A DNA stretch of 64,000 bases. Source: a virus. Made by a program: the position numbers and the translations under genes. The notes beneath the pieces are model-generated. The model was not told the origin of the DNA, did no database searches, and saw only the letters and a list, made by a program, of their open reading frames with translations. Within the stretch, counting starts at the first letter, position 1. Each line of letters opens with the position of its first letter. Location of the stretch: the UHGV virus genome UHGV-0286546, one strand, 5' to 3'. This document shows positions 11,668-43,475 of the stretch, in pieces.

Positions 11668-13314
11668 TTACATCATGCCGGGCATCATATTAAGGCTTAC
11701 ACCTTTACTCTCGACAGGATCAGTGCAAATCATAACACTAGAAGTTAAAATGACAGAAGCAATTGAAGAAGCAGCATAAACTGTACCTTTTACTACTTTA
11801 ACCGGATCAATAATTCCATCTTCTAATAAATTTACAACTTGCATTGTTTTTGCGTTGTATCCGATTTCAATATCATTTTTAGATACAACTTCTTTTACTA
11901 CATCATTGACATTTACACCAGCATTACTCAAGAGCGTTTTGAATGGAGCTTTCAATGATTTAGCAAAAATATCAATACCTACTTTTTCATCTGGATCAGC
12001 AGCTTCAACTTTATCTAAAATTCTATCAGACAAATAAAGCAATGTATTACCAGCACCTGGCAAATAACCTTCTTCAAGTGCAGCTTTTACAGCATACTGA
12101 GCATCATCTAATCTATCACGTAATTCTTTGATTTCCTCTTCAGAAGAACCACCAACTTGAATTACAGCAACACCAGTAGTCAAAGAAGCAAGACGTTTAC
12201 CAAGTTGTTCTCTTTCGTATGTATCATTTTCTTTAAGAGCACCAATTAAACCTTCGATTGCTTCTACACGAGCTGCAATACGTGCCGAATCACCTTTACC
12301 ACCACGAATAATTGTTTCATCTTTCTTAATGATAATTTTTTCGCAAGAACCAAAGGAAGCAGCAGACATTACTTCAAATTTAATTCCCATCGGATCATCA
12401 CCGACATCTGCACCGACATAAATACCCAAGTCACGCAAAATATCTAAACGACGGTCACCATAACCAGGAGCTTCAATACATGCCAACTTAATTTGACCGC
12501 CAGAACGAATAATGTTCATAGCCAAACCTTGTGTTACGCTGGTATCAAAAGACTCAGCAATAATAACTACTGGTTCACCCTTAGAAACAGGAGTCTGGAT
12601 AACATCAATTAAAGCAGACAAATTTGAAATTTTACCGTTACTCAAGATGATATGCGGATTATCAAATTCAGCTGTCTGATCTTCGTGATTATTAACAAAA
12701 AACTGAGAGGTCCAACCTTTATTAAGTGTCATACCTTCTTTGAAATCAAGACGAATTGTACGATCTTTTGTTTCTTCAACCAATACAACACCGGCTTTAC
12801 CAACCTTGCGATAGGCTTCTGCAACAATTTCACCAAGTTTTCTATCACCGTTAGCAGAAACAGTAGCAATGTTAACTAAATCTTCATCACTCTTGATTTC
12901 TTTAGCATAACTATCCAAAGCACCGATAACATAATCTTTAGCTTTTTCAATACCACGACGCATAGAAGTACGATTGACTTTGTTTTCACTCAATTCAATC
13001 ATTCTCATACCAGTATTTACAATTTCCTGACCCAAAACAGTAGCAGTAGTTGTACCATCACCGCAATTTGACATCTGTTTTTGTGCAATAGAGATAGCCA
13101 AGTCAGCACCGAGCTTAATACGTTCATCTTTCGGTTTAATTTCTTTTGCTACAGAAACTCCGTCTTTTGTAATTACAGGATTTTTATCTTCTCTTTGAAT
13201 AACTACTGTATTACCACGAGGTCCCAATGTGCTTTTTACAGCATTTGCAACAAGATTTAAACCATCTACCAAATACTTTTCTGTTTCTTTATCAAAATAT
13301 GTCGAAGTACTCAT
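11668..13314 (-). CDS. groEL: Chaperonin GroEL (Hsp60), full length (548 aa)
   Basis: Hallmark GroEL blocks: LGPRGNTVVIQ, KDGVSVAKEI and DGTTTATVLGQEIV. It has the C-terminal hydrophobic MMPGMM tail and typical length. Confidence 0.9.
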   Translation of the reverse strand: MSTSTYFDKETEKYLVDGLNLVANAVKSTLGPRGNTVVIQREDKNPVITKDGVSVAKEIKPKDERIKLGADLAISIAQKQMSNCGDGTTTATVLGQEIVNTGMRMIELSENKVNRTSMRRGIEKAKDYVIGALDSYAKEIKSDEDLVNIATVSANGDRKLGEIVAEAYRKVGKAGVVLVEETKDRTIRLDFKEGMTLNKGWTSQFFVNNHEDQTAEFDNPHIILSNGKISNLSALIDVIQTPVSKGEPVVIIAESFDTSVTQGLAMNIIRSGGQIKLACIEAPGYGDRRLDILRDLGIYVGADVGDDPMGIKFEVMSAASFGSCEKIIIKKDETIIRGGKGDSARIAARVEAIEGLIGALKENDTYEREQLGKRLASLTTGVAVIQVGGSSEEEIKELRDRLDDAQYAVKAALEEGYLPGAGNTLLYLSDRILDKVEAADPDEKVGIDIFAKSLKAPFKTLLSNAGVNVNDVVKEVVSKNDIEIGYNAKTMQVVNLLEDGIIDPVKVVKGTVYAASSIASVILTSSVMICTDPVESKGVSLNMMPGMM

Positions 13315-14134: not shown

Positions 14135-15634
14135 TTAATATTGTGGTAAGAAAATCAATTGAAAACTTCCATTATGATGAATAATGCAGTTACAATGTGC
14201 CCAATTGGTTAAACCCTGCTGATTATAATTTAATTTAAGCTTAGATAACGTACCTACAACAACTACCTTTTCATAAATTTCAGGGGAATGGGTATGACCG
14301 TGAATTAAACTATCAAAACCTCTATTGAAGCTTCGTACACTACCTTTTGCTCCTGCTATTCCACAATCTCCGTGCTCATTTACCTCAAACCCATTTATTT
14401 TACAACTAGTATTCTTTTCTAATTGTATAAAGTTTTCTGGTAATACATCTGTTAAAATAGTTTCTCCATCCAAGTATTTAATAAAGAGCTGAGCTGCTAA
14501 CCTTGCATTTGGTGTATCTTTATTAAAATCTTTTTCTAAATACTTTCTGACAAATTCATCGTGATTACTACTTATAATACAGAAAGTAGTCTTAGGACAT
14601 TTTTCAGAAATAATATTTAATCTTTCTTCTACAATATTTAATTCTGTCTCTAAGTCTTGATTTGAATTATTTCTATTTTTAGCTCTTGTAAAAGGTAAAT
14701 TAAACTCATGATGTGATATACTATTCCAAGAAGCCACATCATGAATAAATACATATTGTGGTTTGTATTTATTTACCATATTTAATGAATCCATCAATGC
14801 AGACGGACTTTCTTCTGGTAAATGTAAATCTCCTAATACCATACTCGCAATAGTATCTTCTTTGTATTCATTTTCTTTATCATATTTTTTATTTAAATCG
14901 TAGATAAAACCTTCCTTAAAGATAAGGTTTCTACTTACATAGCGTTGTGCATTATCATCATAATCAAGTAAAACTGCACCTAAAGTATGGTTTTTTTCAT
15001 CCAACGCACCACTTACAGTTGTTTTATATTCTACATCTGAAATCGTACCTGTTGAATATGCAATTCTGTAATCTTCATATTGTTTATAAGGCAAGATTTT
15101 CATATATTGTTTACATGATCCAACAATAACCGTAGTATATCCAGTTGTTAATCTATCTAAATTTACTAATGGATTCTTTTGTGTATTTGGAATAAGAAAA
15201 TCTTTAACTAAACATTTCTTATCTTTTTCAAAAATTACTTCTGTAGCCAAATAAGGACGTAAAAGATTAAACGTACTACTATCAAATAACTTATTTCTTT
15301 TTACGTTTTTACCCCAAAGAATAACTAAATCTGCTTTATTTCTATCACAATAGTTTTCAAGAGTATAAAAGCATTCAAGATTTACATCTGCTCCATCTGG
15401 TACATGAGTAATTACAACTTTTTTATTTTTTAAAGTTTTTACAATGTCTGTACGATTAACCAAAAGAGATTTTTCTGCCTCTTCTGTAAAATTAGACCAA
15501 CTACCCCAAACTTTTTCAATAAAACCTGATGAATATCCAGTATTTGCTTTTCTATATTCATCTCTACTTATTTTTTTATCATAAGCACTACATAAATCTT
15601 TGTATGTTTGTATAATTTCTCTAATATTAGTCAT
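14135..15634 (-). CDS. Calcineurin-like metallophosphoesterase (499 aa; catalytic domain in the C-terminal half)
   Basis: Ordered motifs GDLHL, SNHDEF (GNHE-like) and HGHTH (GHxH). Confidence 0.55.
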   Translation of the reverse strand: MTNIREIIQTYKDLCSAYDKKISRDEYRKANTGYSSGFIEKVWGSWSNFTEEAEKSLLVNRTDIVKTLKNKKVVITHVPDGADVNLECFYTLENYCDRNKADLVILWGKNVKRNKLFDSSTFNLLRPYLATEVIFEKDKKCLVKDFLIPNTQKNPLVNLDRLTTGYTTVIVGSCKQYMKILPYKQYEDYRIAYSTGTISDVEYKTTVSGALDEKNHTLGAVLLDYDDNAQRYVSRNLIFKEGFIYDLNKKYDKENEYKEDTIASMVLGDLHLPEESPSALMDSLNMVNKYKPQYVFIHDVASWNSISHHEFNLPFTRAKNRNNSNQDLETELNIVEERLNIISEKCPKTTFCIISSNHDEFVRKYLEKDFNKDTPNARLAAQLFIKYLDGETILTDVLPENFIQLEKNTSCKINGFEVNEHGDCGIAGAKGSVRSFNRGFDSLIHGHTHSPEIYEKVVVVGTLSKLKLNYNQQGLTNWAHCNCIIHHNGSFQLIFLPQY

Positions 15635-15640
15635 ATATAC

Positions 15641-16384
15641 CTACTTCTTTTTACTTTTTGTACTATTTTTGGATTTATTTTTCTTTGAATACTTATTTTT
15701 TAACCAACTATCAAAACCTTTTTCATATTCTGCAAAATCTTGTTCAGTTTTAAGTTTTTCTTGTAAATCGTTTTCAATAACAACGTCTGCTAAGCCGTAT
15801 TTAAGACAATCTGCGGCGTTTAAATAGCCTCTTTCGTCTGCTTGTATCTCTAATAATTTTTCTCTTTTCAATTTGCCATCACAAGCATTCAAATATAAGT
15901 TTATAATATTTTCAGCGTGCTCTTTATTTTGAATATATACTTTTTCTATTTCACTATGCTTTTGTGTAATGTCAAATATACAACCAAAATGAATAAAATG
16001 TTTAGAAAGACTATTAATAAATCTTTGATCACCATTTGCTGCAAGAATAGAAGCAGCGCTACCTGCACTACCTAAAACAAAAGTATAAATTTCTATGTTA
16101 TTTAATCTTGCCATATTCATTAATCCAAGCAACGTAATCATAACACTAACATCACCACCCGGACTATTAATGATAAACATTAACTTTTTACGCACATTTT
16201 GTTCATTTAAAACATATTGAGTCAAATCACCTATCAAATATGCACAATTATCTGCTGTAATCTCATCTAAAATAAAAACTTTGTCATTATACATGTAATT
16301 TTTATAACAATTCAAAGTCAATGCATCATTATTACCATTCCAAGACATGTTTTGTAGTTCTACCTTCAAAAAATTAAATAACAT
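15641..16384 (-). CDS. ClpP-family (S14) serine protease, possibly the prohead maturation protease
   Basis: INSPGGDV, the Ser-containing GSAGSAASIL block and a downstream His-containing FIHFG block fit the ClpP catalytic core. It ends in a Lys-rich tail. Confidence 0.7.
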   Translation of the reverse strand: MLFNFLKVELQNMSWNGNNDALTLNCYKNYMYNDKVFILDEITADNCAYLIGDLTQYVLNEQNVRKKLMFIINSPGGDVSVMITLLGLMNMARLNNIEIYTFVLGSAGSAASILAANGDQRFINSLSKHFIHFGCIFDITQKHSEIEKVYIQNKEHAENIINLYLNACDGKLKREKLLEIQADERGYLNAADCLKYGLADVVIENDLQEKLKTEQDFAEYEKGFDSWLKNKYSKKNKSKNSTKSKKK

Positions 16385-16496: not shown

Positions 16497-16961
16497 ATGT
16501 CTCCGGAAGAATTAGATGAATTAGTCAATGAATATTTTATTATGACTTTTATGGATATTTATGGCTTAGTTGACTTATCAAACCATACTACTTATCATAA
16601 TATTGTAAAAACTCTAACTAAGAAAGATAAAAAATTTCAAAACATTGTTAATGATGTTAATTCTTTCGTTAACAGCAGTAAAAATAAATTCCCGCCTGAG
16701 ATAATTAAAAAAGCGTTAATTCGTAATTTAGTCAAAAAAGGTGTAGATAAAAATATTTTAGTTCGTGCAGAAAATACTTTTAACAGAGAAGAATTACATA
16801 ATAATGATTCAGTCACAGAAGCAAATGAAGAAGATTGGATGATTGTATGGCAAAATTCTAAAAATAAAAAGAATTTCGATTATTTAAAAGCTAAAGAAAA
16901 CGAAAGTTTTAGTGATTATTTACACAGAATCAGAGACGAATATAACAAAGGTCAAATCTAA
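16497..16961 (+). CDS. Hypothetical protein (154 aa)
   Basis: ORF that is the first gene of a rightward unit. It has a TAATG stop/start overlap with the next gene. Confidence 0.5.
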   Translation: MSPEELDELVNEYFIMTFMDIYGLVDLSNHTTYHNIVKTLTKKDKKFQNIVNDVNSFVNSSKNKFPPEIIKKALIRNLVKKGVDKNILVRAENTFNREELHNNDSVTEANEEDWMIVWQNSKNKKNFDYLKAKENESFSDYLHRIRDEYNKGQI

Positions 16962-19192
16962 TGAAAAAAGAAAACGATATTAAATTGCTCAACGAAGCAG
17001 ATGATACTTATACTTCTGTTGCGAATGCTCCAAAACCGTTTAATCCATCTAAACCAGATTTAAATTTTGATGATAGTACAGAAAACCAATCTGCCGATAA
17101 AACTAAATTAACAAAGATGGCATTAGATAAAATCACTCAATCTTTAGAAGTATCTGATGAATTACAATCTATTCTTAACCAAATTAAAAAGTTAAACACT
17201 GAAGAAGGTTCAAACGAATGGAAAATTAACGAAGAAGGTAATACTGCAACATTAAAAAATAAAAACGCTAGAATCTTTAAACAAAATAATAATCTCTGCT
17301 TGTCTTACAACGACAAAGTAGAATTGTTTAACTCAGTAGCAGAATTACACTCTTGGTTAAAATCTCATAATATGCCTCTTCCTAAAGGTATACAATTACA
17401 TGAAGCAAAAGGTGGATTTAATATTCTTCCTGATAGTCCTTGGTATAATATCTTAAATAATAAAACTACTGCTGATGGAATGAAAATCGGTGATAAAACG
17501 ACTTGGACTAAAGATGATGCTGATGAATTAAAATTACAAAATAGAAAACCCGTTGTAAAAATGGGAAGAACTGCCTATAAAAATGCTACACAGTTCATGA
17601 AGCAAAGCGAATTAGATCCTTCGAAATGGCATCAAACCAAAACAAAAGAATTTCCAGAATCAATAAACGAAGAAAACCAATTAGATAAAGATATGTTGTG
17701 GTACTTAGAATATCAAGACAAAAATCACGAGTCTTCATTATATTTAAATCAAGACTGGCAAGAAAGTAATTTGTTAACAGATAACCTCGATCATGCTGCA
17801 GTATTTCCAACAAGAGAAACTGCGATGCAAGAAGTTAGAATCGTTTATGCACTTCATGACACAGATGCTCCATTTAAACCAATTCAAAATTCTACGTTAG
17901 GTGAATGCTTTGGAGGGGAAATTACAACAGGTACATTAGGTTCTGCTGTTACATATACTGCTGATAAAGATAAAAAAGAAGCCTTAGACGAAGAAACAGA
18001 ATTAAAAGAAGTCATGGGTTTCCCTGGTACTCCATTTGAAAACGTAAAATATGCAAAAGCTGTAACTAGAGCTAAAGAATATTTGAAATGGTTAGCAGGT
18101 AAAGATGAGTATGGTCGTCATAACTTAGCTTTAGATCCTAATCATGAAGAACATGAGCAGCAAGCTATAGCAGACTATAACAAAGAAATGATGACTAATG
18201 CTATTTATTGGGATTGGGATGCCTTGTTTAAAAAATATCTTGACCCTAAAACAGGACGCCCTCTCAATAAAGAAGAATTTAGAAAGTACATCTTAGACAC
18301 AGTTAATCCAAAATACGGCATTGACATTAACCCAGATGAAGATATTTTAACTAAAAACTATGTACAGGACCCAAATAGACCTAATTTAACAAAAGCAGAC
18401 TTTGCAGTACGTTCTCCACATAATACTGCTCAATTTAAAGCTTTCGGTGACTGGTATAGAGCAAATAAGTATGATTCAATCGGTAATCCTATTTGGAAGA
18501 AAGACTTAGATGCTGCTAAAAGTGAATATCAAAAAACTTTAAACAATCCATCAAGTGATTCTCAAACTAATATCACAGGTATAATCAATAACTTAAGTCA
18601 ACTGATTGATAATAACTTACCTGATGATCAAGTTATGAATGAAATTGTCAAATATAAAAGTAAATTATCTCCAACCGATTTCAATTTATTAGTTGATCAA
18701 ATTGTTACAGCAGGTAAAAATGGACAATTAGACTTAAATGATACTATGTTAATGATGTTGCCTTATGTAAAAACATCTACACAAACCGAATCAATCTTCA
18801 ATAAAACTAAAAATACAGAATTAAAAGAAGACGATTCTCCGGCTGATTTTGCTACTGGTCCAGCTCCTGATAACAACAATACAACAGTAAATGTATCTCA
18901 GGACTCACCAGAAGCTCCAGAATCAACAAATGACACTCCTGATATGGGTATGAATACTCCGGAAGGAAACAGTGCTCCTGCCGCTAGTTTTGGAGACATA
19001 AACATAGGAGGAGGTTCTGGTGGATATGGACCTGAAGAAGATATACCTGCTGCTCCTATGCTAAATGAGCCTGAATATCAAATTATAGACGTCTTAGTAA
19101 ACGATCAAGATGATACAGATGTAAAGGTAAAAGTTAAAAATCTTGATACAGGTAAAATAGAAACAAAAAACCTAAATGAAATAGACGTATAA
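16961..19192 (+). CDS. Large Asn/Asp-rich hypothetical protein (743 aa)
   Basis: Long ORF with a Gly-rich acidic C-terminal region. No motif was recognised. Confidence 0.55.
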   Translation: MKKENDIKLLNEADDTYTSVANAPKPFNPSKPDLNFDDSTENQSADKTKLTKMALDKITQSLEVSDELQSILNQIKKLNTEEGSNEWKINEEGNTATLKNKNARIFKQNNNLCLSYNDKVELFNSVAELHSWLKSHNMPLPKGIQLHEAKGGFNILPDSPWYNILNNKTTADGMKIGDKTTWTKDDADELKLQNRKPVVKMGRTAYKNATQFMKQSELDPSKWHQTKTKEFPESINEENQLDKDMLWYLEYQDKNHESSLYLNQDWQESNLLTDNLDHAAVFPTRETAMQEVRIVYALHDTDAPFKPIQNSTLGECFGGEITTGTLGSAVTYTADKDKKEALDEETELKEVMGFPGTPFENVKYAKAVTRAKEYLKWLAGKDEYGRHNLALDPNHEEHEQQAIADYNKEMMTNAIYWDWDALFKKYLDPKTGRPLNKEEFRKYILDTVNPKYGIDINPDEDILTKNYVQDPNRPNLTKADFAVRSPHNTAQFKAFGDWYRANKYDSIGNPIWKKDLDAAKSEYQKTLNNPSSDSQTNITGIINNLSQLIDNNLPDDQVMNEIVKYKSKLSPTDFNLLVDQIVTAGKNGQLDLNDTMLMMLPYVKTSTQTESIFNKTKNTELKEDDSPADFATGPAPDNNNTTVNVSQDSPEAPESTNDTPDMGMNTPEGNSAPAASFGDINIGGGSGGYGPEEDIPAAPMLNEPEYQIIDVLVNDQDDTDVKVKVKNLDTGKIETKNLNEIDV

Positions 19193-19822: not shown

Positions 19823-20800
19823 TTAATCTAAAATATAACTATAAATACTTTTCATTCCTGGACATCCTGTTTCATCAAAAATTAACTGAAAGCAATCTCC
19901 ATTACAGTATTTAAAAAATTTACAAGTTAAACAATTTATAGATCTTTGTTTTTCTAAGTTTATTAAATTTTCTTTTATTTTTGTATCTATTTTGTCTAAA
20001 TTACCATATTTTTTATCACAAGTATTAGGACATCCTGCTATTGTACCGTCTGGATTTATAGTAATTACATCATTCATACAAGATCTATTTCTACAACCTA
20101 AGAAAATACCATTGATAGATTGTTTAATCCCTTCAAATAAAGGTATTTTAAGTTTATTATTCTTTTCGTATAGTTTATAAGCTTTTAATAACCAATTTTG
20201 TAAATCTATATTATATGGTCTTAAGTTATTATCTAAGGCTCTACCCGTATTAGTTATTCTTTCAAAATTAAAATTATATATATCTTTATCTGTAAAATAT
20301 TTAAAGATTTCTTCAGGTTCTTTTTCTTTTATTAAAATATTAGTAAGACATATAATAGGTTGTACATTTATATTATTTTCTTTTAATAACCTAACATTAT
20401 TTTCCCAAAGTTCTTGTTGATCATCTTTAAAACGTATTTTATAATCCCAAGATGTTAAAATAAAAGGATTATTATCAAAAGGTAACATCTGTTTAAAAAT
20501 ATCTAAATGTTCTTTTGTTATTTCATATATTAAGTTTGTAGTAATTGTCCATTTAAAGTTTAAATTTTTAGTTTTATATAAAAGATATTGGATATTAGAT
20601 ATATCATACATAAAAGGTTCACCTCCATGTAAATGTATATCTATTTCTTCATTATTAGTATTTAATGATTTTAAATAAATAATTACTTTTTCTAATATAT
20701 TTTTTGACATATTACTATGATTATGTAAAATTTCATTATAACAATGCTTACATTTTAAATTACAAGCGTTTGTTAATTTTATATATATAGTTTTAGTCAT
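19823..20800 (-). CDS. Radical SAM enzyme with C-terminal SPASM-type Cys clusters (325 aa)
   Basis: CNLKCKHCY (CxxxCxxC), HGGEP, TSWDYKIRF and the C-terminal clusters CRNRSC...GCPNTC...CLTCKFFKYCNGDC...GCPG. Confidence 0.8.
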   Translation of the reverse strand: MTKTIYIKLTNACNLKCKHCYNEILHNHSNMSKNILEKVIIYLKSLNTNNEEIDIHLHGGEPFMYDISNIQYLLYKTKNLNFKWTITTNLIYEITKEHLDIFKQMLPFDNNPFILTSWDYKIRFKDDQQELWENNVRLLKENNINVQPIICLTNILIKEKEPEEIFKYFTDKDIYNFNFERITNTGRALDNNLRPYNIDLQNWLLKAYKLYEKNNKLKIPLFEGIKQSINGIFLGCRNRSCMNDVITINPDGTIAGCPNTCDKKYGNLDKIDTKIKENLINLEKQRSINCLTCKFFKYCNGDCFQLIFDETGCPGMKSIYSYILD

Positions 20801-21830
20801 TATTTAATAAAAAGTAAGGTTTTAAAAATTCTTTAGTTTTTTCTAAGTCAATATCTTTTTTCTTAAATATAAAAAAATCATATAAGGTAAAGGGATCAAC
20901 AATAATACACACTGGAATACTAGGATAACCAATATAAAGAGAAGATAGTAATTGTTTATAAGATAAGCTACAAACAAAATGTCCATCGTTTGTTAATTTT
21001 AAAACGATTACTTCTCTGGGTAAATTTTCAGCCATATCTTTACAACAAAAGTTTAAATTTGTTTGATTTAATTCAACATGGCCTATAAATGCTTTGTTTG
21101 TAATATTGTAGTGTAATATCTTATTTTCAATTATAATGTTTCTATATAATTCTTTAGGTAAATTAGTATAAAGAGCATAATGTTCAAAATATCCTTCTTT
21201 TTCCGGAGGAGGAATTAAAGTATAATATTCTTTTTTTAAAATTGACCAAATAGCTTTTTCTGGTAAGTATTTAAATTCTAATTTTGGAATTTCAAAATCT
21301 TTTTTACATTTATTTAAACAAGGAGGTATATTTTCACACAAATCCATATTAAATAATAATATAGTTACATCTAATTCTCCTCTTATTTGTAAAAAATGTT
21401 TTATTACTTGAGGAAGTTGTAACGTATCTTTATTTCCATAATAATTTAATCCACATTCTTGTCTGCTTAATAATTCATTTAACGCTTCTTCTGTAATCGG
21501 TTCATATTCAGTTATATTTATATTTTTAAATTGTTTTAAATCTTCATATTTTAAAGTAATTGATAAATATTCAGATTTTGAACACCAATCCAATAGATCA
21601 TTTTTAGCAATATTTATTTTTTTGTATGAAAAGTCTAAATTATCTAAATCTAAAGCTAGTTTTCTAACTAAGTATTTTAAATAATTTATTTGATTTGAAT
21701 ATGTTTCAACAGTCCAATCTTTAGGTTCCGCATAAATATCATCTCCTTCTTCATATGAAATAGAAGGATTGTATCTTAAATTTTTATCTTCTAATATTGA
21801 AATAGGTAAAGCTTTTGCTATTTTAAGCAT
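20793..21830 (-). CDS. Hypothetical protein (345 aa) within the rSAM operon
   Basis: ORF with 8-nt and 2-nt junctions to its neighbours. Confidence 0.5.
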   Translation of the reverse strand: MLKIAKALPISILEDKNLRYNPSISYEEGDDIYAEPKDWTVETYSNQINYLKYLVRKLALDLDNLDFSYKKINIAKNDLLDWCSKSEYLSITLKYEDLKQFKNINITEYEPITEEALNELLSRQECGLNYYGNKDTLQLPQVIKHFLQIRGELDVTILLFNMDLCENIPPCLNKCKKDFEIPKLEFKYLPEKAIWSILKKEYYTLIPPPEKEGYFEHYALYTNLPKELYRNIIIENKILHYNITNKAFIGHVELNQTNLNFCCKDMAENLPREVIVLKLTNDGHFVCSLSYKQLLSSLYIGYPSIPVCIIVDPFTLYDFFIFKKKDIDLEKTKEFLKPYFLLNND

Positions 21831-21832
21831 GG

Positions 21833-22588
21833 TTATTTCTCAGTAATTAAATTTTCTACATCTGATACAAATTCTGACCAGTTTTCTTGACCCATTCCGT
21901 ATAATAACACCGAAAAAGGAGTAAATTTAAGAATAGTATCAAATAATTCGTTGTTATCTTCTGTAAAAATACTTTTATAAAAAACAGGAGTATCGTTTTC
22001 TAAAGTATCATAAATAAACATGAAGTATTGGTTACGTATAATATCACATATTGAATTATTAAAGAGTTTATCCTCAACCGTTTCTATTTCATTAAAATCT
22101 AATTTTTCATTTTTATTAAAATCTAATCTAGAAATAGGATATAAAGGTAATGAAATAATAAATCGATTGATTTCTTTTAAATAATCTTTATTGTTTTTTA
22201 TAAAGTTTTCAATTTCTTCGTTTGTTAAAATACTTTCAATTGGAAAATCTTGTTGATTATAAAAACCTATAATTTTTATCCAAGTGTTAGTACATTCTTC
22301 AAATATATATTCTATATCCCCTTTCAAATAATACAATAAAAATTGTTCTTTAAAAGAATATTCAGTATTTGAAAAATCTAAATCTATATTTGAATATCCA
22401 GTGTTCCTTAAATAAATATATGTAACTCTAATATTATCCTCTTCGTTTATATTTGGATAATTGAGGTTAGACATATCTATAATGGCACCATGTTCAGAAA
22501 TATCTGTCATTTGATTTATATCGTAAGGTAACCCTGTTTTAATTTGCATAATATTATCTACGTCCTCTATTTGAATAACAACTTCCAT
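21833..22588 (-). CDS. Hypothetical acidic protein (251 aa) within the rSAM operon
   Basis: ORF tightly packed in the operon. Confidence 0.5.
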   Translation of the reverse strand: MEVVIQIEDVDNIMQIKTGLPYDINQMTDISEHGAIIDMSNLNYPNINEEDNIRVTYIYLRNTGYSNIDLDFSNTEYSFKEQFLLYYLKGDIEYIFEECTNTWIKIIGFYNQQDFPIESILTNEEIENFIKNNKDYLKEINRFIISLPLYPISRLDFNKNEKLDFNEIETVEDKLFNNSICDIIRNQYFMFIYDTLENDTPVFYKSIFTEDNNELFDTILKFTPFSVLLYGMGQENWSEFVSDVENLITEK

Positions 22589-23246
22589 GACAATTATTAT
22601 GACATGTATAGAAATTATAAACTAATCCTCCCGCACTAAAACATTGTGATTGCCAGGTGTTATAACAGTTTGAAATTGTATTGTTCATTGAATTAGCAGA
22701 AGCTAGACCTTCTTTTACAATTTCAGTAGGAGGTGTAACATTAGGAGCTGTATTACCTTTTCTTTCCCAAAATTCCGTTTTAGATTGATTACCATCAGCA
22801 CCACCAGGAACAGCAGGAAAAGCAGTATTAAAAATACCACCACCACTTATACTTTGGATTAAATTTCTTGTACCTTCAGTTTTATGATACCAGTTTGTAG
22901 TAAAATAACGAATTTTACTTAAGGTTCGTACTATTCTTAGCATATTATCCCAAAGAGTAGAAGCTGTAATAATTTGATCAGAAATAGTCCAAGTTGGTTG
23001 TGCATCTATAGCAGCTAATTGATTACCAGGCATTGCAACAGGATTAGTCCAGCCTAATGTTGCCCAGTTTCCATTGTTACCTGTTTTACCATAATAAGCA
23101 GTACCTGTAAAATAAGGAATGTTACCACTATGATATTGAATTTTACTATAAATAGTTGCTGTAACTCTAGTATTGAATTCGTTAATAGCACCGATTAAAT
23201 TATCTCTAGAAACTTTTACAATAAGTTGTTGTGCTGGAATTGTCAT
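22554..23246 (-). CDS. Thr/Asn/Gly-rich protein (230 aa) with a Cys-rich C-terminal tail; candidate rSAM substrate
   Basis: The last 40 residues, NCYNTWQSQCFSAGGLVYNFYTCHNNCHGSCYSNRGRR, contain 6 Cys. The gene lies between rSAM genes. Confidence 0.55.
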   Translation of the reverse strand: MTIPAQQLIVKVSRDNLIGAINEFNTRVTATIYSKIQYHSGNIPYFTGTAYYGKTGNNGNWATLGWTNPVAMPGNQLAAIDAQPTWTISDQIITASTLWDNMLRIVRTLSKIRYFTTNWYHKTEGTRNLIQSISGGGIFNTAFPAVPGGADGNQSKTEFWERKGNTAPNVTPPTEIVKEGLASANSMNNTISNCYNTWQSQCFSAGGLVYNFYTCHNNCHGSCYSNRGRR

Positions 23247-23247
23247 T

Positions 23248-24171
23248 TTAATTAACCTTCATTTTATTTAACAAATAATATAGCCCTGAACAATACGGTT
23301 TATCGATTTCAATTAGATGCTCTGCTTTACATTTAGTGAAATATTTACAGTCTTTACAATTTTTATTATACCAAATCTTTTCTTCGTTACAAAAATCTTT
23401 CCACTGCTGCAAGGTTTGAAATTCAACCGGATACTCTATACTTTCTTTATATTTAATTGAACTGAAATTGCCGTTTGGATTAAGAAAAACGAAACTATCT
23501 GCTAAAGGTGAATACTTTGAATCTCTTAGAATTATTTCATTACAAATAGTAAATTTATAATTATGTTTATTCTTTTCATGTATAATTTTATCTAAAAATA
23601 AAATATAATCCTTTGTAGTAATATTATAAACTTTTTTTGAATAAATTGAAGGATGATACTGTATAAAATTTACATCAAAACCCAATTCTTCATACATGTC
23701 TAGCAAAGTAAAAATGTTTTCGTTGAGTAATGACGGTAAAACGACAACAGATAAACTAATTATTGGTAAATGTTTAAAGTTTTTTAAATTTAACAATGTT
23801 TTTTCATAAAAAGGTCTTTCCTTATTTAAGGATATACCACAATTACAATTATTTAATAAACAGAATTCTAAAATTTTAGTATTAGAAAAATTTGTAATAA
23901 AGGTAGGTTTTATATTTTTTATTAATTGATACAAATCATATAAATACGAATCATCTAATAAAGATATTTCTCCACCATATATTGTAGAGCTTTCAATTAT
24001 ATATTCTTTTTGTAATTCAGTTAATCTAGTTGATAATTTTTCCAAAGATAATAAATTTTTATTTTTTGTTAAATTACCTAAATAACAGTATTCACAACTG
24101 TAATTACAATAAAAAGAAGGCATAATAGAAATATTACTTAATGTTTTTAGCATTTTTATATTCTTCGACAA
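23248..24171 (-). CDS. Radical SAM enzyme (307 aa) with a twitch/SPASM-like C-terminus
   Basis: CNYSCEYC, YGGEISLL and C-terminal CKDCKYFTKCKAEH...CSG. Confidence 0.75.
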   Translation of the reverse strand: MSKNIKMLKTLSNISIMPSFYCNYSCEYCYLGNLTKNKNLLSLEKLSTRLTELQKEYIIESSTIYGGEISLLDDSYLYDLYQLIKNIKPTFITNFSNTKILEFCLLNNCNCGISLNKERPFYEKTLLNLKNFKHLPIISLSVVVLPSLLNENIFTLLDMYEELGFDVNFIQYHPSIYSKKVYNITTKDYILFLDKIIHEKNKHNYKFTICNEIILRDSKYSPLADSFVFLNPNGNFSSIKYKESIEYPVEFQTLQQWKDFCNEEKIWYNKNCKDCKYFTKCKAEHLIEIDKPYCSGLYYLLNKMKVN

Positions 24172-25219
24172 AATTATTGTTGTTTTCTAAAAATTCGTAC
24201 AATTGTTTAAAAGGACAATTTGTAGTTTTATAATTTTTGTATAGAATAGAAGTCCAACAAAAGCGTGGACATTGCATAAAGTATTTACAGTAGACGCATC
24301 CTCTTTTATTTTTACCTAAATTTGCTTTTATTTGTGAAACATTGTCTTCTGATATTTTTAAATTTCCATAAAAGTCTTCGTTTGGTAAAATAGATGATGT
24401 TTTTACACAGTTATATGTTACGCAATCTTTACACGCAGAAAGATGCTTATGACAACCACATATAAATTCTTTTTCTCTTTCTGGAAAACAAAAACTGTTT
24501 AAAATTTTTTGTAAATCTAATATATTATAAAATTTATTGATTAAACAGGTTTTAAAGAATAAGAAAAGATCATCGTCACTAGGTAAGAGAGTTTTCCAGT
24601 TTATATTTGGAATGTAATAATTAATGTCTATTTTTTGTGTAAATTGTAAGTTTTGTAAATGGGTTAAATTATTACAATATTCAAGTATATTAGGTTTTGT
24701 AAGTGTAATTGATATTTCTTCCAATAGATTAAGAGAATTAAAGTACTTTGCATTTGTTAGCATTAAATTTTTTTGTTCTTCTGTTTTAAATCTATCTATT
24801 GGATCGTAACTTATATTTAATTTACTGTTTGTATCGTGTAATAGTTTTAAAACTCTATCAGTCTTTTTATATACACCATTAGATACCCATAAAAAGATTA
24901 AAGTAATATCTGGAAAGACTTCTTTGAATACTTTTTTGAAATTTGAAATTAGTTTCCTATATTCATCAAAAAGGGTATCCGGTAAAGCATCATAAAATAG
25001 TTCACCACCCCACATTCTAATAGCAATCTCTTTTGTATTTGGATATTTTTTATATTCTTCTTTAAATCTATCCACTAAAAGTTGAGGTATAGAATGAATC
25101 CAATTTAAATCTATTTTAGTATTTTCATGCGCTTCTAAACAAAATTTGCATCTTAAATTACAAGCTTCGAATAAAATACAATCAAAACCAAAACGTATAT
25201 CTTGAGAACTAGTAACCAT
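24134..25219 (-). CDS. Radical SAM enzyme (361 aa), CNLxCxFC subfamily
   Basis: CNLRCKFC, WGGELF, ISYDPIDRF and C-terminal clusters CGCHKHLSACKDC...CVYCKYFMQCPRFC. Confidence 0.75.
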   Translation of the reverse strand: MVTSSQDIRFGFDCILFEACNLRCKFCLEAHENTKIDLNWIHSIPQLLVDRFKEEYKKYPNTKEIAIRMWGGELFYDALPDTLFDEYRKLISNFKKVFKEVFPDITLIFLWVSNGVYKKTDRVLKLLHDTNSKLNISYDPIDRFKTEEQKNLMLTNAKYFNSLNLLEEISITLTKPNILEYCNNLTHLQNLQFTQKIDINYYIPNINWKTLLPSDDDLFLFFKTCLINKFYNILDLQKILNSFCFPEREKEFICGCHKHLSACKDCVTYNCVKTSSILPNEDFYGNLKISEDNVSQIKANLGKNKRGCVYCKYFMQCPRFCWTSILYKNYKTTNCPFKQLYEFLENNNNFVEEYKNAKNIK

Positions 25220-26321
25220 TTCGCCAATCCAAATAATCTATTAAAACTTCTTTATTGTTTTCAATATACTCATAAACTCTTTTATAAGGACAAATCGTAG
25301 GTTTAAACTTATTAAAAACAATTGCAATCCAACAAAACATTTGACATCTGTTGTAATACTTACATGTTAAGCATCCTCTTTTTTGTAAACCTAGGGTTGC
25401 TTTTATCTTATTTGTATTTTCTTCTGTAATGTTTTGTGTATATTCACCATAAAAACTTTCGCGTGGTAATAAAGAACTGCAAGTTGCACAATCTACACTC
25501 CATTCACCGTGTGTAATTTGAGAACAATATTGACAATCACAATATTTCGAAATGTTATCTTTACAGAAATATTGGAATAGCCTTTCTAATACTTTAATTT
25601 CATATAATTTGTTTTTAATAGCCCATTCAAAAAAGCTAAATATCTCTTCGTCAGTTGGCAGCAATTCTTCCCAGTTTGGATTTGCGATATAATAATTTAA
25701 ATCTATATTATATCCGAGTTCTTTGAAATACTTTAAATGTGATTTATCATTTATAAAAGCTTGAATTGAAGATTTTGTTAAAGTAATTGATATTTTCTTA
25801 CCAACATTATTTTCTTTAAAATATTTAGCAGATTCTAGCATAGTATTCAATTGAGTTTTAGTTTTAAATCTATTACAAGGATCATAACTCAAATTGATTA
25901 TACCTTTTGAATAATTTACTAGATCTAATACTCTTTTTCTTTTATTGAATACTCCGTTAGAAAGCCAAGAGAACAGAATATTAAGTTTAGAGAAATGTAA
26001 TTTAAAAAGAGAATTTATATTATCAACAAATTTATAATAACTATTAAAAATTTCATCCGATAAAGAATCGAAAAAGATTTCTCCTCCCCATAACATTAAA
26101 TATACAGTTTTTATAGAAGGATATTTTTCATATTCTTTTCTAAAATTATCATAAATAATGGTATGTAAATTTTCAATGTATTTAGTATCTATCTTTTTGT
26201 TTATGTGTGATTCAAAACAAAAATTACATTTTAGATTACAATTTTCAAAAAACATACAGGCAATTTCATATGATTCTGGCTCTTTGTAAAAAGGTATAAT
26301 TGGAGGAGTTACTTTTTCCAT
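25209..26321 (-). CDS. Radical SAM enzyme (370 aa), CNLxCxFC subfamily
   Basis: CNLKCNFC, WGGEIF, LSYDPCNRF and a Cys-rich C-terminus. Confidence 0.75.
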   Translation of the reverse strand: MEKVTPPIIPFYKEPESYEIACMFFENCNLKCNFCFESHINKKIDTKYIENLHTIIYDNFRKEYEKYPSIKTVYLMLWGGEIFFDSLSDEIFNSYYKFVDNINSLFKLHFSKLNILFSWLSNGVFNKRKRVLDLVNYSKGIINLSYDPCNRFKTKTQLNTMLESAKYFKENNVGKKISITLTKSSIQAFINDKSHLKYFKELGYNIDLNYYIANPNWEELLPTDEEIFSFFEWAIKNKLYEIKVLERLFQYFCKDNISKYCDCQYCSQITHGEWSVDCATCSSLLPRESFYGEYTQNITEENTNKIKATLGLQKRGCLTCKYYNRCQMFCWIAIVFNKFKPTICPYKRVYEYIENNKEVLIDYLDWRNGY

Positions 26322-27385
26322 TGTAAATACCTCTTAATAATATCTGGATTATTCTTTATATACTGTCTTATTTTTCTATGCGGGCATTCTTGTAAAATGT
26401 AATCTTCATGACAAAGCTGCATCCAACAGTACATACTACAATTATTATAATGTTCACATAAAAAACAATTTCTTTTTGTCATACCTTTCTTAGTTATATA
26501 TTCTACTGCATCTTCTTCTTTTATATGTTTAAAATCTTTTCCATAAAATTGAATTAAATCTAAAGAAGGAATATAAACATTACAGCTATAATGTAATTTA
26601 TTTTCATAAAAAATGACTGTATTTTTACAATTACATGCTTTCGTTATTTTTTTATTTGAGTCTAAAGTATTTTCAAGTAAACTTTGTAAATAAATACAAT
26701 TAAAAATGTCATTATCTAATAAAGTCTTAAAGAATATAAAAATATCTTCGTCTGTCGGTAGTAAAAAATCTTTATTTTTTGTTGGTACATAGTTATTGAT
26801 ATCTAAGTTTATATTTTCAAATACTTTTAGCTGTTTTGGATCTTCAACATAGTTTTTTATTGCAGGTTTTGTTAAGGTAATAGCAACGTTTTCGATTAAA
26901 TTGTTATTTTTTAATTCATTGAAGTTATTTATAAATAATGATCTTTGTTTTTTTGAAGTAAAGCGTCCAAAGGAATCATAAGATAGGGTTATCTTAGAAT
27001 TTATATCTTTTAAAAAGTTTATTACTCTTTCTATATTATTATAAATACCATTTGACATTACATGACATTGTATTTTAATTTTATGAGTAGAGTACTGAGA
27101 TAAAATGATATCTTTGTAGGCATTTATAAATTCATCAGAAATGCTATCTTGAAATAGTTCGCCACCTCGAATAGAAAGTTTTAAGATTTTAGTGTTTGGA
27201 TGTTTTTTTAAGAGTGCTGATATAAGTAAATTTAGCCTATTAGGTAAACTCTTTAAATAATCTATACTTATTTCTTTTTGTGTATGATTTTGAAAACAAT
27301 GTAGACAATTTAAATTACATTTTTCTAACAGTACACAATCTATTGAAAGAGTATTATTTTTTAATGTTTCGTAATCTATATTCAT
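26309..27385 (-). CDS. Radical SAM enzyme (358 aa), CNLxCxxC subfamily
   Basis: CNLNCLHC, RGGELF, LSYDSFGRF and C-terminal CFLCEHYNNCSMYC. Confidence 0.75.
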   Translation of the reverse strand: MNIDYETLKNNTLSIDCVLLEKCNLNCLHCFQNHTQKEISIDYLKSLPNRLNLLISALLKKHPNTKILKLSIRGGELFQDSISDEFINAYKDIILSQYSTHKIKIQCHVMSNGIYNNIERVINFLKDINSKITLSYDSFGRFTSKKQRSLFINNFNELKNNNLIENVAITLTKPAIKNYVEDPKQLKVFENINLDINNYVPTKNKDFLLPTDEDIFIFFKTLLDNDIFNCIYLQSLLENTLDSNKKITKACNCKNTVIFYENKLHYSCNVYIPSLDLIQFYGKDFKHIKEEDAVEYITKKGMTKRNCFLCEHYNNCSMYCWMQLCHEDYILQECPHRKIRQYIKNNPDIIKRYLQWKK

Positions 27386-28172
27386 GATAAAGTGTTTTTG
27401 GAAAACTACATTCTTTTTGTAAAATGCAAGGCTTACAAATATTTGCCAGCTTACAACTTAAACATTGTTGTAAAACATTAGTTTGTGTATATTGGGGACA
27501 TCCCTTTTTCAATATTCCACTCGGTGTTAAGGTATATGTTTTAGAACAATCACAATTCCAATCAATTAAATTTTCGAATAAAAGATTTTTAAATGAAAAC
27601 GACCAATCTTTAGATATTTTACATAACCAATTATCAACTCTTTCGTAAAATTCAGCTTTTTTAGAATTATCAACTAATTGTTCAAATTTTACACCAGTTA
27701 TAGACTTTATCTTATCCAGTTTACTCAATATTGTTAAAAAGGTATTATAATCACAATTTATTAAGTCTTCCGTTAAAGTAATTAAAATAATACAAGAAAG
27801 GTTGTATTGTTCCAATAGTTTTAAATTGTCTATCCAAATATCAAATTGTTTCGGGGTGAATCTAGTTTGATTCCAAGAGGTAGCAATATCTAAATCATAA
27901 TCTTTTATTAATTTTAGAGAAGTTGCATTTAATAATAATAGATTGGTTGAAATAGAGCTTATTTTTTTTGTTTCTAGGATAGGTATTAATTTTTCTTGTA
28001 GTAACAACGGTTCTCCACCAAACAGTATCCCACGGTCGAAAAAAAGTGTCTTTAATTGTGATATAAATACAGATTCATTATATCTTTCTACTTTTTTATG
28101 TAATTCGCAGTGTGGACAGTCTAAATTACAAGAGTATGTTGGAATGATGTATAATTCTTTTATAGTTTCCAT
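27354..28172 (-). CDS. Radical SAM enzyme (272 aa)
   Basis: CNLDCPHC, FGGEPLL, TSWNQTRF and C-terminal CDCS...GCPQ...CLSCKLANICKPC. Confidence 0.75.
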   Translation of the reverse strand: METIKELYIIPTYSCNLDCPHCELHKKVERYNESVFISQLKTLFFDRGILFGGEPLLLQEKLIPILETKKISSISTNLLLLNATSLKLIKDYDLDIATSWNQTRFTPKQFDIWIDNLKLLEQYNLSCIILITLTEDLINCDYNTFLTILSKLDKIKSITGVKFEQLVDNSKKAEFYERVDNWLCKISKDWSFSFKNLLFENLIDWNCDCSKTYTLTPSGILKKGCPQYTQTNVLQQCLSCKLANICKPCILQKECSFPKTLYHEYRLRNIKK

Positions 28173-29116
28173 CCTGTCCTCATAATTATTTCTTTTCTTT
28201 TGAGCATTTCTGCGCAGTGATTTTTAGTTTGCTTGTTTGTGTTTCTTAAAGAGGTACAGGCATTACACAAATTACACAATTCACAGGTCAAGCATTTTTC
28301 ACTTAATAAAGTATTTATATCTAATTTTTCTTTAGTTGGTATTACTTTTTTTGTGTCGAGTGGTAAAGTCAAGCCAGAAGTTCCACAATCTTCACACCAA
28401 CTGTATGTAATTTCATTTGTATTAGATAGCCAAAATGCTCGAATGGTTGATTTACAGGAGAGATTGGTATTAAAGTTACATCCTCCATTATAAAATTGTA
28501 TTTTGGTATCTTGATATTTATCTAATCCTAATTCTTTAGCTTTTAACCATATATCAATCATTTTATATAAAGGATAAAAATTTTTTGATTTACCAAGAGC
28601 TAACGTCATGTTTAATTTACATTTGGTGTTTAATTTTTTGGCTAAATGTAAGTGATCTAATGCTTGTTTTTCGTTTGCATTGTTTATAAGACTGATAAAA
28701 GGTGGTACATATCCAATTCTTTCTTTGAACATAGTCATGACTTTAATAAACATTTCTTCGGTATATGGTGTATTTTTATCCCACAATCTATCATTACCAT
28801 ATTGAAAAGAAGTACCAATGCCTAACCTTTTATTTTTAAATAGATTTTCCCATTTCTCGGGATAAAAATAAAAATCCTTTAAATTCGTTGTAAAAGCAAT
28901 GTTAAATTCACCGAGTGTTAGTATTTCTTCGTAATAACTTGGATTAACACATAAAGGATCACCACCAGTAAATATTAATCCATCTGGTTTTATAGTATTA
29001 ATTACTTTTTTTAATTCTTCTGGAACTTTTGTCTGATGTTTTATATTAAGAAGACCAGCACTACAGAAAGTACAATTAAAGTTACAGCGACCAGTCGGTT
29101 TTATTATTAGTTCCAT
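28160..29116 (-). CDS. Radical SAM enzyme (318 aa)
   Basis: CNFNCTFC, FTGGDPL and C-terminal CEDCGTSG...CLTCELCNLCNAC. Confidence 0.75.
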   Translation of the reverse strand: MELIIKPTGRCNFNCTFCSAGLLNIKHQTKVPEELKKVINTIKPDGLIFTGGDPLCVNPSYYEEILTLGEFNIAFTTNLKDFYFYPEKWENLFKNKRLGIGTSFQYGNDRLWDKNTPYTEEMFIKVMTMFKERIGYVPPFISLINNANEKQALDHLHLAKKLNTKCKLNMTLALGKSKNFYPLYKMIDIWLKAKELGLDKYQDTKIQFYNGGCNFNTNLSCKSTIRAFWLSNTNEITYSWCEDCGTSGLTLPLDTKKVIPTKEKLDINTLLSEKCLTCELCNLCNACTSLRNTNKQTKNHCAEMLKRKEIIMRTGWKL

Positions 29117-29501
29117 CGATTAGAAATTCCTTTTTAAAGTAATTTATTGTCTTAAGTATAGAGTTATATTGCCAGATGTTTCCTATTTTTAGGAGAATTT
29201 TGTCATATTCTTTTTTATATTTACTGTATTTGTAGTCTTTAAAATATTTATCATCTGGTAGTAAGTCGTCATCATCTAATGCTTCATAAAAAGGTACTTT
29301 AAAAAATTCTTCTAAACATTTAGCATAAATAATGGCTACAAATATAGTTTTTGCTGGATAGACTAATTTAGATTCTGTTTTAAAAAATTTAATTACTTGA
29401 TTAGGTATGTTTTTATAATTAACCGTATAAGGTAAATTTATATCATCCCACTCATGTAATAAATATGATAATTGTCTTTTTTCTAATAGAGTTTTATTCA
29501 T
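29082..29501 (-). CDS. Hypothetical protein and first gene of the leftward rSAM operon (about 139 aa from the ATG at 29501; the track extends to a TTG at 29567)
   Basis: ORF. The ATG choice leaves about 70 nt of divergent intergenic space containing TAAAGTTCTAG and TATAAT-like elements. Confidence 0.45.
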   Translation of the reverse strand: MNKTLLEKRQLSYLLHEWDDINLPYTVNYKNIPNQVIKFFKTESKLVYPAKTIFVAIIYAKCLEEFFKVPFYEALDDDDLLPDDKYFKDYKYSKYKKEYDKILLKIGNIWQYNSILKTINYFKKEFLIDGTNNKTDWSL

Positions 29502-29523
29502 GTTTACTAGAACTTTAGAGTTT

Positions 29524-29540
29524 AGTTCTATTATAATAAG
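29524..29540 (+). promoter_or_regulatory. Promoter-like element AGTTCTATTATAATAAG, containing TATAAT, about 35 nt upstream of 29572
   Basis: The TTCT-WW-TATA pattern recurs upstream of other first genes of units (16497, 31390, 34045, 43476, 45474, 48498). Confidence 0.3.
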
Positions 29541-29571
29541 ATCTTTAAAATATATTGGGATATACAAATAA

Positions 29572-39650: not shown

Positions 39651-39663
39651 TGAATTCCCCTCA

Positions 39664-41432: not shown

Positions 41433-41451
41433 CTTTTTAGTATTTTCCTTT

Positions 41452-43393: not shown

Positions 43394-43416
43394 AACAAAT
43401 ACCGTCCTTTTTGGGT

Positions 43417-43444: not shown

Positions 43445-43475
43445 AAAAAACGAAAGTAATCCTAAGTAGATTTTA

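Follow-up and report, generated by a model that had tools for sequence, protein, structure and literature searches.

A Cys-His-tailed protein family of phages and Bdellovibrionota encoded with radical SAM/SPASM enzymes and proposed as their protein-sized substrate

The locus and the tail-bearing protein

The stretch of DNA analysed here, called the window below, is the whole 64,000 nucleotides of the virus genome UHGV-0286546, and the subject of the analysis is a minus-strand gene (22554..23246) that encodes a protein with a cysteine- and histidine-rich C-terminal tail and lies among genes of radical S-adenosylmethionine (SAM) enzymes. The location, strand and ATG start of this open reading frame (ORF), as well as its length of 230 amino acids (aa), were confirmed as given in the initial annotation. 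The protein consists of a predicted globular alpha/beta body (approximately residues 14-215) and the C-terminal Cys-His tail, and its end reads ...NCYNTWQSQCFSAGGLVYNFYTCHNNCHGSCYSNRGRR. Six cysteines had been counted in the last 40 residues; there are in fact five (C194, C202, C215, C219 and C223), all of them within the last 37, and residues 1-193 are free of cysteine. If five cysteines were placed at random among 230 residues, all would fall within the last 37 with a probability of about 1e-4. The body had also been described as rich in Thr, Asn and Gly, and this enrichment is real but moderate (12.6, 10.0 and 8.9 % of the protein versus 6.7, 8.3 and 4.8 % in 16 other proteins of the window). 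Neither a peptidoglycan-binding nor any other domain was found in scans of Pfam, PHROG and NCBIfam, and no export signal is visible by eye at the N-terminus, no dedicated predictor having been run.

Two parts of the cysteine-rich region should be distinguished. The family-defining tail (22557..22604, minus strand) comprises the codons for residues 215-230, CHNNCHGSCYSNRGRR, and consists of Cys-His-x-x repeats followed by an Arg-x-Arg-Arg C-terminus; it is the proposed modification site. Cysteine occurs in it at every fourth residue (C215, C219, C223), and the His-x-Ser pattern is fitted by H220-G-S only, as H216 gives H-N-N with Asn in the third position. The second part is a clade-specific cysteine pair (22641..22667, minus strand; codons C194 to C202, NCYNTWQSQC) in the last helix of the body, both cysteines falling within helix 184-204 of the predicted model.

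The tail gene starts 1 nucleotide past the stop of a radical SAM gene (23248..24171, minus strand) and belongs to an unbroken, overlapping, co-directional array which runs from 29567 to 19823, contains seven radical SAM genes and ends with 19823..20800; the genomic context described earlier, with the tail gene directly after 23248..24171 and in one array with 19823..20800, is therefore correct. Downstream of the tail gene lies the gene of a 238-aa-type partner (21833..22588, minus strand), a member of the unannotated phrog_20767 family that matches the hidden Markov model (HMM) of the partner with E=1.4e-24 and whose true start is likely the ATG at 22549, 4 nucleotides past the stop of the tail gene. 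It is followed by a 345-aa ORF (20793..21830, minus strand) in the slot which a conserved 370-aa protein occupies in other loci. This ORF has no match in Pfam, PHROG, NCBIfam or PADLOC or to the HMM of the 370-aa family, and it is common only to the syntenic contig L001. The last gene of the array (19823..20800, minus strand) encodes a radical SAM/SPASM enzyme whose orthologue, in most other loci, has its gene immediately before that of the tail protein. On the other side, 23248..24171 is preceded by five further overlapping radical SAM genes whose products have Cys-rich C-termini (24134..25219, 25209..26321, 26309..27385, 27354..28172 and 28160..29116, all minus strand). A scan of this AT-rich DNA for promoters and terminators gave no signal above the shuffled background.

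The family and the conservation of its tail

A word-indexed search returned only five close homologues (65-99 % identity), in which all five cysteines are invariant and one of which sits on a 160-kb contig with identical gene order. The family as a whole was found by an exhaustive profile search and counts 91 cluster representatives, nearly all of 180-260 aa, in which the match extends to the extreme C-terminus. Conservation was derived from alignments of 62-64 diverse sequences. C215, R227, R229 and R230 are invariant, H216, C219 and H220 are conserved in at least 90 % of the sequences and C223 is kept in most of them. The earlier expectation that homologues would keep the cysteine spacing is thus borne out for all five positions in close homologues and for the last three across the family, but not for C194 and C202, which are confined to the subclade of the window and absent from most of the family. 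Since the five cysteines are invariant in close homologues, and the last three together with the Arg-x-Arg-Arg end define a large family, the five-cysteine tail is not a product of chance.

The hallmark of the family is Tyr-Thr/Ser, then two to four Cys-His-x-x units, then x-Ser-Arg-x-Arg-Arg-COOH. The Arg-x-Arg-Arg end is present in 86 of the 91 representatives (the other five are fragments or dubious), and 71 of these 86 have at least three Cys-His/Tyr units. The two variable positions of the unit are almost always small or polar, Ser or Asn occupying the fourth in 215 of the ~250 units (~86 %). Some members have one or two cysteines only, yet the His-Ser-Asn/Asp units are kept. Members of the family can accordingly be described as a globular domain of about 125-300 aa with a tail of two to four (rarely more) Cys-His-x-Ser/Asn units. 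The ORF of the window matches the HMM of the viral members with E=4.7e-31 and has at least two Cys-His units in its last 30 residues and the Arg-x-Arg-Arg end on a homologous body.

When viral and bacterial DNA was scanned with the back-translated pattern Cys-His-x-x-Cys-His-x-x-Cys-His-x-x-Arg-x-Arg-Arg-stop, it was found in more than 120 viral contigs of 5-490 kb among the matches listed, and in 47 bacterial genome stretches, about 30 of which are Bdellovibrionota on contigs of up to 2.8 Mb. The family is widespread in phages and Bdellovibrionota and it is unannotated: the tail protein, the 238-aa partner and the 345-aa ORF have no match in Pfam, NCBIfam or PADLOC, the tail protein weakly matches the unannotated phrog_35144 of PHROGs, and neither the tail motif strings nor a description of the module outlined below were found in the searchable literature. 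At the end of a Dysosmobacter segnis contig (L152:3907-4266) a partial ORF of at least 119 aa has about ten Cys-His-x-Ser/Asp units before an ARGRR end and adjoins two radical SAM genes and the gene of a 370-aa-type protein. A 249-kb contig that had been binned with a Bacilli genome carries six radical SAM genes, after which comes the gene of a protein closely related to that of the window; this contig probably belongs to a related jumbo phage.

A conserved gene module in phages and bacteria

The order of the module was derived by clustering all ORFs that neighbour the viral tail-protein loci. In about 100 viral loci the genes follow each other in a fixed, co-directional order: cupin, radical SAM, tail protein, 238-aa protein, 370-aa protein, radical SAM. 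On the 5' side of the cupin there is a tail-fibre-like 519-aa protein and before it a 79-aa protein, in some loci with a DUF4815/phrog_358 virion protein first, while further radical SAM, 2-oxoglutarate (2OG)-Fe(II) oxygenase and B12-radical-SAM genes lie at the 3' end. Radical SAM genes are found within 5 kb in 97 of the 104 viral tail-protein loci, and the seven exceptions are all cut by the end of the locus; where the flanks reach 4 kb or more in either direction, as they do in 16 loci, the 238-aa partner and radical SAM genes, with a median of three, are present without exception. The window has the 238-aa partner and the upstream-type radical SAM/SPASM enzyme, the latter placed downstream here. 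The cupin, oxygenase, 370-aa and fibre families were not detected in the window by HMM search, and its module is bordered by head genes on one side and by further radical SAM genes on the other, and does not stand behind virion or tail-fibre-like genes. In many phages the module is located behind tail-fibre-like and giant virion structural genes.

A variant of the module occurs on contigs of smaller phages (20-66 kb; loci L003, L028, L037, L041, L046, L056, L068 and L070 among others), where two tandem tail-bearing genes for 126-140 aa stand directly after a tail-fibre-like gene, with a different radical SAM family (~385 aa) and a 366-aa protein next in order. In the Bdellovibrionota loci the tail protein is accompanied by its 238-aa and 370-aa partners and by the two radical SAM families, without phage structural genes, so the module is self-contained. 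At three or four of these loci (L128, L134, L137, L169) it stands beside a protein of about 395 aa and its partner of about 200 aa. The larger one has, judged by eye only, a pilin-like N-terminus and a fibre-type chaperone-like C-terminus, and this pilin-like neighbour echoes the tail-fibre neighbourhood of the phage loci.

Members of the family are also present in cultured phages. A tblastn search with the last 62 residues of the window protein, tail included, gave weak matches that were later recognised as true family members; matches in Klebsiella were set aside as chance. Ralstonia jumbo phage RSL2 encodes ORF068 (186 aa), which ends CHSSCHTSCHGSRGRR and comes directly after radical SAM ORF067 and a cupin, with another radical SAM gene near, and Phosso gp289 ends YCHTSCHASCHSSRSRR. 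The 238-aa partner was detected in 15 records out of 50,697, which stand for 12 cultured phages (RSL2, RSF1, FLC phages, RsoM3USA, SURPRISE13, Atu_ph07, Phosso and pPa_SNUABM_DT01), and exactly the same 15 records are matched by the SPASM enzyme 19823..20800 (E <= 1e-8). Carriers of the module include phages of Ralstonia (RSL2, RSF1), Burkholderia (FLC6), Agrobacterium (Atu_ph07, AUZ94952) and Pseudomonas (pPa_SNUABM_DT01). The module recurs in the unrelated jumbo phages RSL2, Atu_ph07, Phosso and pPa_SNUABM_DT01, and in all four lineages, when checked, the tail-bearing gene was flanked by the 238-aa partner and the 19823-type enzyme, the latter directly upstream. In Atu_ph07 (L123) and Phosso (L171), whose genomes measure about 470-490 kb, the gene of a giant virion structural protein (~4,450 aa and ~4,560 aa respectively) precedes the module by a few genes. 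In the literature on RSL2-like phages the radical SAM, cupin and oxygenase genes are merely listed. No virion proteomic evidence for the tail protein was found in publications on the module phages, supplementary tables not being covered, and no publication linking phage radical SAM genes to tail fibres or to precursors of peptides that are synthesised on ribosomes and modified after translation (RiPPs) was found.

The reading we prefer, to which a probability of about 0.6 is given, is that the tail would be a substrate of the co-encoded radical SAM/SPASM enzymes and the whole protein a protein-sized analogue of a RiPP precursor. The idea of a protein-sized substrate is well supported by comparative genomics. 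The initial annotation had already regarded the protein as a possible substrate of these enzymes, and the tie of the tail to them stands on the 97 of 104 loci, the 16 of 16 loci with full flanks and the identical 15 records; the SCIFF label attached to the tail has to be dropped, as discussed below.

Radical SAM enzymes and their pairing with the tail

Fourteen ORFs of the window (272-370 aa, span 19823..44387) have an N-terminal CxxxCxxC motif, and all match the radical SAM HMM of the module. Those of the array begin at 19823, 23248, 24134, 25209, 26309, 27354 and 28160 and the remaining ones at 31390, 34045, 34964, 35877, 38694, 40506 and 43476. Such a density of radical SAM genes as in the 19823..44387 island is unusual for a phage.

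The product of 19823..20800 matches the Pfam family Radical_SAM PF04055 with 41.5 bits (cut-off 29.5) and has its CxxxCxxC motif, CNLKCKHC, at residue 13. Its SPASM cysteine pattern, read from the translation, is complete (CMNDVITINPDGTIAGC ... CLTCKFFKYCNGDC ... GC) and contains the motifs C-x10-G-x4-C and C-x2-C-x5-C-x3-C. The enzyme aligns over its full length to the DynA, PapB and anSME models, in no case near the cut-offs, and its Bdellovibrionota orthologues align with anSME, DynA, DarE and CbpB. One orthologue (L137:6532-7620) passes the SPASM model TIGR04085 with 28.2 bits against a cut-off of 27, while a second enzyme of the same locus (2725-3801) misses it with 26.2. The product of 23248..24171 scores 28.6 bits for PF04055, just under the cut-off, and has CNYSCEYC at residue 22 and a match to the rSAM_A HMM (E=3e-23); its six C-terminal cysteines include C-x2-C-x5-C, and the sequence fits a twitch or a reduced (partial) SPASM domain alike.

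In a BLAST census, 18 of the 20 top matches of 19823..20800 were enzymes encoded immediately upstream of a tail gene, with a similar result for 27354..28172, and 23248..24171 is of the type found 5-7 genes downstream of the tail gene in other loci. An upstream-type enzyme at 19823 and a downstream-type enzyme at 23248 indicate that the gene order has been rearranged in the window. As the gene of its orthologue mostly stands right before a tail gene elsewhere, 19823..20800 is most likely the dedicated maturase. Both enzymes had been named as partners of the tail in the initial annotation; the SPASM enzyme 19823..20800 is indeed the canonical partner, but the adjacent 23248..24171 is not of the canonical type.

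Alignments to the SCIFF, CcpM, DarE and QhpD maturase models start at profile positions 76-97, which means that the enzymes lack an N-terminal recognition domain, and in 19823..20800 the position of CxxxCxxC at residue 13 leaves no room for one. Recognition must then come from elsewhere; the globular body of the tail protein, its Arg-x-Arg-Arg terminus and the partners encoded in the module are plausible sources.

Another possibility, which we consider quite improbable, is that the radical SAM enzymes act on other targets (fibres, poly-Ser-tailed proteins, nucleotides or DNA) and that the tail protein stays unmodified, its basic Cys/His tail binding DNA, RNA or the envelope. Phage radical SAM enzymes are known to take part in DNA hypermodification, and the window encodes further candidate substrates. 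The Arg-x-Arg-Arg end is basic, and the basic repeats of HxsA, a protein compared below, bind DNA (PMC13128918). Such independence would leave unexplained why the tail protein strictly co-occurs, as a neighbour, with both the 238-aa partner and an enzyme of the 19823 type, even in Bdellovibrionota and RSL2, where fibre genes and poly-Ser proteins are lacking, and it agrees poorly with SPASM-type enzymes whose nearest relatives are protein and peptide maturases.

Predicted structure of the body and the tail

An AlphaFold2 model built on a 64-sequence alignment (predicted local distance difference test 86.8, predicted template modelling score 0.82) has an alpha/beta globular body at about residues 14-215. 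Confidence drops across the last 15 residues, the tail being the sole low-confidence part, which suggests a Cys-His tail that extends flexibly beyond the last strand; disorder is to be expected of a segment that must enter the active site of an enzyme. The body appears in the model as a novel fold without a solved structural relative, since a Foldseek comparison with viral models returned only unannotated family members, including the Atu_ph07 protein, and a profile search of the sequences of the Protein Data Bank was empty.

The same features bear on the main rival of the substrate reading, metal or iron-sulphur (Fe-S) cluster binding by the tail; the protein would then be a metallochaperone, a cluster donor or a redox partner of the neighbouring radical SAM enzymes, or would have an oligomeric tip stabilised by the bound metal as in spike and fibre proteins with His or Cys sites. 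A tail unstructured in a ligand-free model would be compatible with this function, as would the four-residue period with which Cys and His alternate and the fibre-like genes that neighbour the module in many phages. Tails rich in His and Cys are known from two metallochaperones, UreE and HypB, and from PAAR and spike apexes. A radical SAM/SPASM enzyme depends on two or three 4Fe-4S clusters, and 14 genes of such cluster-dependent enzymes are present in the window. Metal binding leaves unexplained the invariant Arg-x-Arg-Arg-COOH end and the fact that Ser, Gly and Asn so strongly dominate the two non-ligand positions; nor does it agree with the members that have one or two cysteines and still keep the His-Ser-Asn/Asp units, or with a body for which library and profile searches found no similarity to known Fe-S scaffolds or ferredoxins. 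We therefore regard it as unlikely.

A well-folded body is also difficult to reconcile with a very large leader whose true RiPP core is the tail, a Cys-His peptide of about 15 residues that would be cleaved and act as a free metallophore, signal or toxin. A recognition domain with a short C-terminal repeat core would resemble RiPP precursors with large leaders, for instance those of the NHLP and Nif11 kind; there is also a likeness between the enzymes and RiPP maturases, and one homologue has an expanded repeat array. On the other hand, the body, of 125-300 aa, is not only confidently folded but well conserved, and the carriers are lytic-type phages with the module beside virion genes. No protease or exporter conserved in the module was found among the neighbouring gene families, and peptide release is in our opinion very improbable.

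Comparison with known systems

HXS was the closest functional precedent found for the putative substrate relation. HxsA of this antiphage system has 214 aa and five His-x-Ser repeats; its maturation depends on the two radical SAM enzymes HxsB and HxsC together with HxsD, and it carries a site-specific modification on its SHRSS motif (PMC13128918). Both systems would rely on a folded protein of about 200 aa instead of a short peptide, with short repeats that contain His-x-Ser in HXS and resemble it here, and both clusters include more than one radical SAM enzyme and small proteins of unknown fold; the basic residue inside the SHRSS repeat of HXS has a counterpart here in Arg-x-Arg-Arg after the last repeat. 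The resemblance is one of architecture and motif, not homology: the HxsA and HxsD models have no match, and the HxsC model gives 19.8 bits for 28160..29116 and 15.2 for 27354..28172 against a cut-off of 267.9. Moreover, the repeats described here have an obligatory Cys before His, are placed at the extreme C-terminus and precede an invariant Arg-x-Arg-Arg end. HXS is a host defence island, whereas the present module belongs to phages and predatory bacteria and has no PADLOC match.

With SCIFF and the ranthipeptides the tail shares a Cys-rich C-terminal segment encoded beside radical SAM/SPASM enzymes, and cysteine at every fourth residue recalls the Cys-X3 spacing of PapA, in which PapA/PapB forms Cys-X3-Asp thioethers. 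The initial annotation went further and called the tail SCIFF-like, which does not hold for size, cysteine count or model matches. The SCIFF (six cysteines in forty-five) precursor has about 45-50 aa and six cysteines, and the window protein is a folded protein of 230 aa with five cysteines and no acidic acceptors; the conserved unit consists of Cys-His-x-Ser/Asn repeats and Arg-x-Arg-Arg-COOH. The SCIFF precursor model TIGR03973 is unmatched, as is every NCBIfam family for the tail protein at E<=0.01. The SCIFF maturase model TIGR03974 aligns with residues 3-98 only of 19823..20800 (32.3 bits versus 425), and the PapB model gives 52.4 bits versus 340, without the N-terminal peptide-recognition domain. 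The CXXX-repeat system (TIGR04114/TIGR04115) fits the cysteine spacing, but its models do not match the 230-aa protein and the best TIGR04115 score in the family is 19.3 bits versus 350.

Triceptides and the FxSxx-COOH/FxsB system provide another likeness, that is repeated aromatic-x-polar units (here His-x-Ser/Asn) and the importance of the position relative to the C-terminus; the chemistry of triceptides is the formation of three-residue cyclophanes. The obligatory Cys, the Arg-x-Arg-Arg end and the protein-sized precursor set the present family apart, and the YhhB, GrrM/OscB, AmcB and FxsB models match the SPASM enzyme of the window weakly, with about 28-43 bits against cut-offs of 310-445. 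Finally, the anaerobic sulfatase maturase anSME and QhpD, which belongs with QhpC to the quinohemoprotein amine dehydrogenase system, are radical SAM/SPASM enzymes that act on Cys or Ser of proteins. The enzymes described here, like anSME, align from the N-terminus without a leader-peptide recognition domain, and 19823..20800 and its Bdellovibrionota orthologues align to the anSME model over their full length (45-64 bits, cut-off 349). The tail has no C/S-x-P/A-x-R motif, and neither a sulfatase nor a dehydrogenase subunit is encoded nearby. As this target motif is absent, formylglycine formation of the anSME type is unlikely. Attachment of c-type haem was also considered, because the overlapping C-x3-C-H resembles variant haem sites, and was rejected: no export signal is visible by eye, and the partners are SPASM maturases, not haem lyases.

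Phage background and other genes of the window

The window is identified as phage DNA by genes for a portal protein (6911..8701), a prohead protease (15641..16384), GroEL (11668..13314), SbcCD and tail-fibre proteins, and its GC content is about 27 %. The phage has no close cultured relative, as neither a 10-kb region (megablast) nor the full tail protein (tblastn) had any match in the 50,697 cultured-phage records. The prohead protease is ClpP-like, and 14135..15634 encodes a T5 A1-like "DNA transfer" metallophosphoesterase; the syntenic contig L001 additionally carries a GroES gene. The region between head genes and radical SAM genes is interrupted on the opposite strand by a 743-aa ORF (16961..19192, plus strand) with an acidic, low-complexity C-terminal part and no family match in PHROGs, the sole library searched for it.

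The radical SAM island includes a second kind of tail-bearing protein. Two paralogues of 226 and 248 aa (29572..30252, plus strand, and 42007..42753, minus strand; 44 % identity) end in 33 and 25 Ser residues respectively, followed by a shared FIAYMDI carboxy-terminus, and homologues elsewhere end ...VYTC-S7-C-S8-C-S5-MFIAYMDI. These poly-Ser-tailed proteins are a further candidate substrate. A common origin with the Cys-His tail family was rejected, as profile comparison revealed no homology.

Proposed maturation and significance

If the tail is indeed a substrate of the co-encoded enzymes, a 19823..20800-type enzyme would act on it first of all, with the folded body, the Arg-x-Arg-Arg end and perhaps the 238-aa partner providing recognition. 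The Cys/His/Ser units would receive covalent changes, i.e. thioether or carbon-carbon cross-links or oxidation, and the modified tail would probably stay on the protein with no release of a peptide. The chemistry may be thioether formation, as supposed in the initial annotation, or equally His-centred carbon-carbon cross-links as in three-residue cyclophanes, or oxidation of Cys or Ser. In many phages the module has tail-fibre and virion genes as neighbours, which suggests a function where virion and cell envelope meet. The protease-resistant knot at the tip of a structural protein, also supposed in the initial annotation, is for now a conjecture.

Several points weigh against modification of the tail. 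All support for it is guilt by association, and no match to the curated models of RiPP precursors and maturases reaches its cut-off. Alternating Cys and His are classical metal ligands, so that simple metal or Fe-S binding is possible. Each of the several radical SAM enzymes, cupins and 2OG oxygenases of a module may have a target of its own, and in the window, with its 14 radical SAM genes and more than one candidate substrate, several enzyme-substrate pairings are conceivable; the 23248 enzyme, whose gene stands right before the tail gene here, is, moreover, not of the canonical partner type.

A broader form of the substrate reading may be put forward tentatively, at somewhat less than even odds. 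Phages and Bdellovibrionota would share a widespread, hitherto unrecognised pathway of protein maturation in which batteries of radical SAM/SPASM enzymes (from three to at least seven per locus), often with a cupin, a 2OG-Fe(II) oxygenase and a B12-radical-SAM enzyme, turn the tail into a heavily cross-linked or cofactor-like structure at the envelope interface of virion or of predator and prey. In the window it would be one of several such pathways, beside that of the poly-Ser proteins, and this plurality would explain the 14 radical SAM genes.

RiPPs modified by radical SAM enzymes are a major source of new chemistry. To our knowledge, whole folded proteins are rare as substrates of such enzymes and have so far been cellular only, namely sulfatases, the amine dehydrogenase subunit QhpC and very recently HxsA. 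The family described here is a large, unannotated set of putative substrates in phages of about 20-490 kb and in predatory bacteria, with a simple sequence signature and with members in four culturable phage lineages. Should the substrate relation be true, it would give the first rationale for the accumulation of radical SAM genes in some large phages, and it might bring a new Cys-His-Ser cross-link chemistry and a new way in which virions and predators harden or functionalise a protein.

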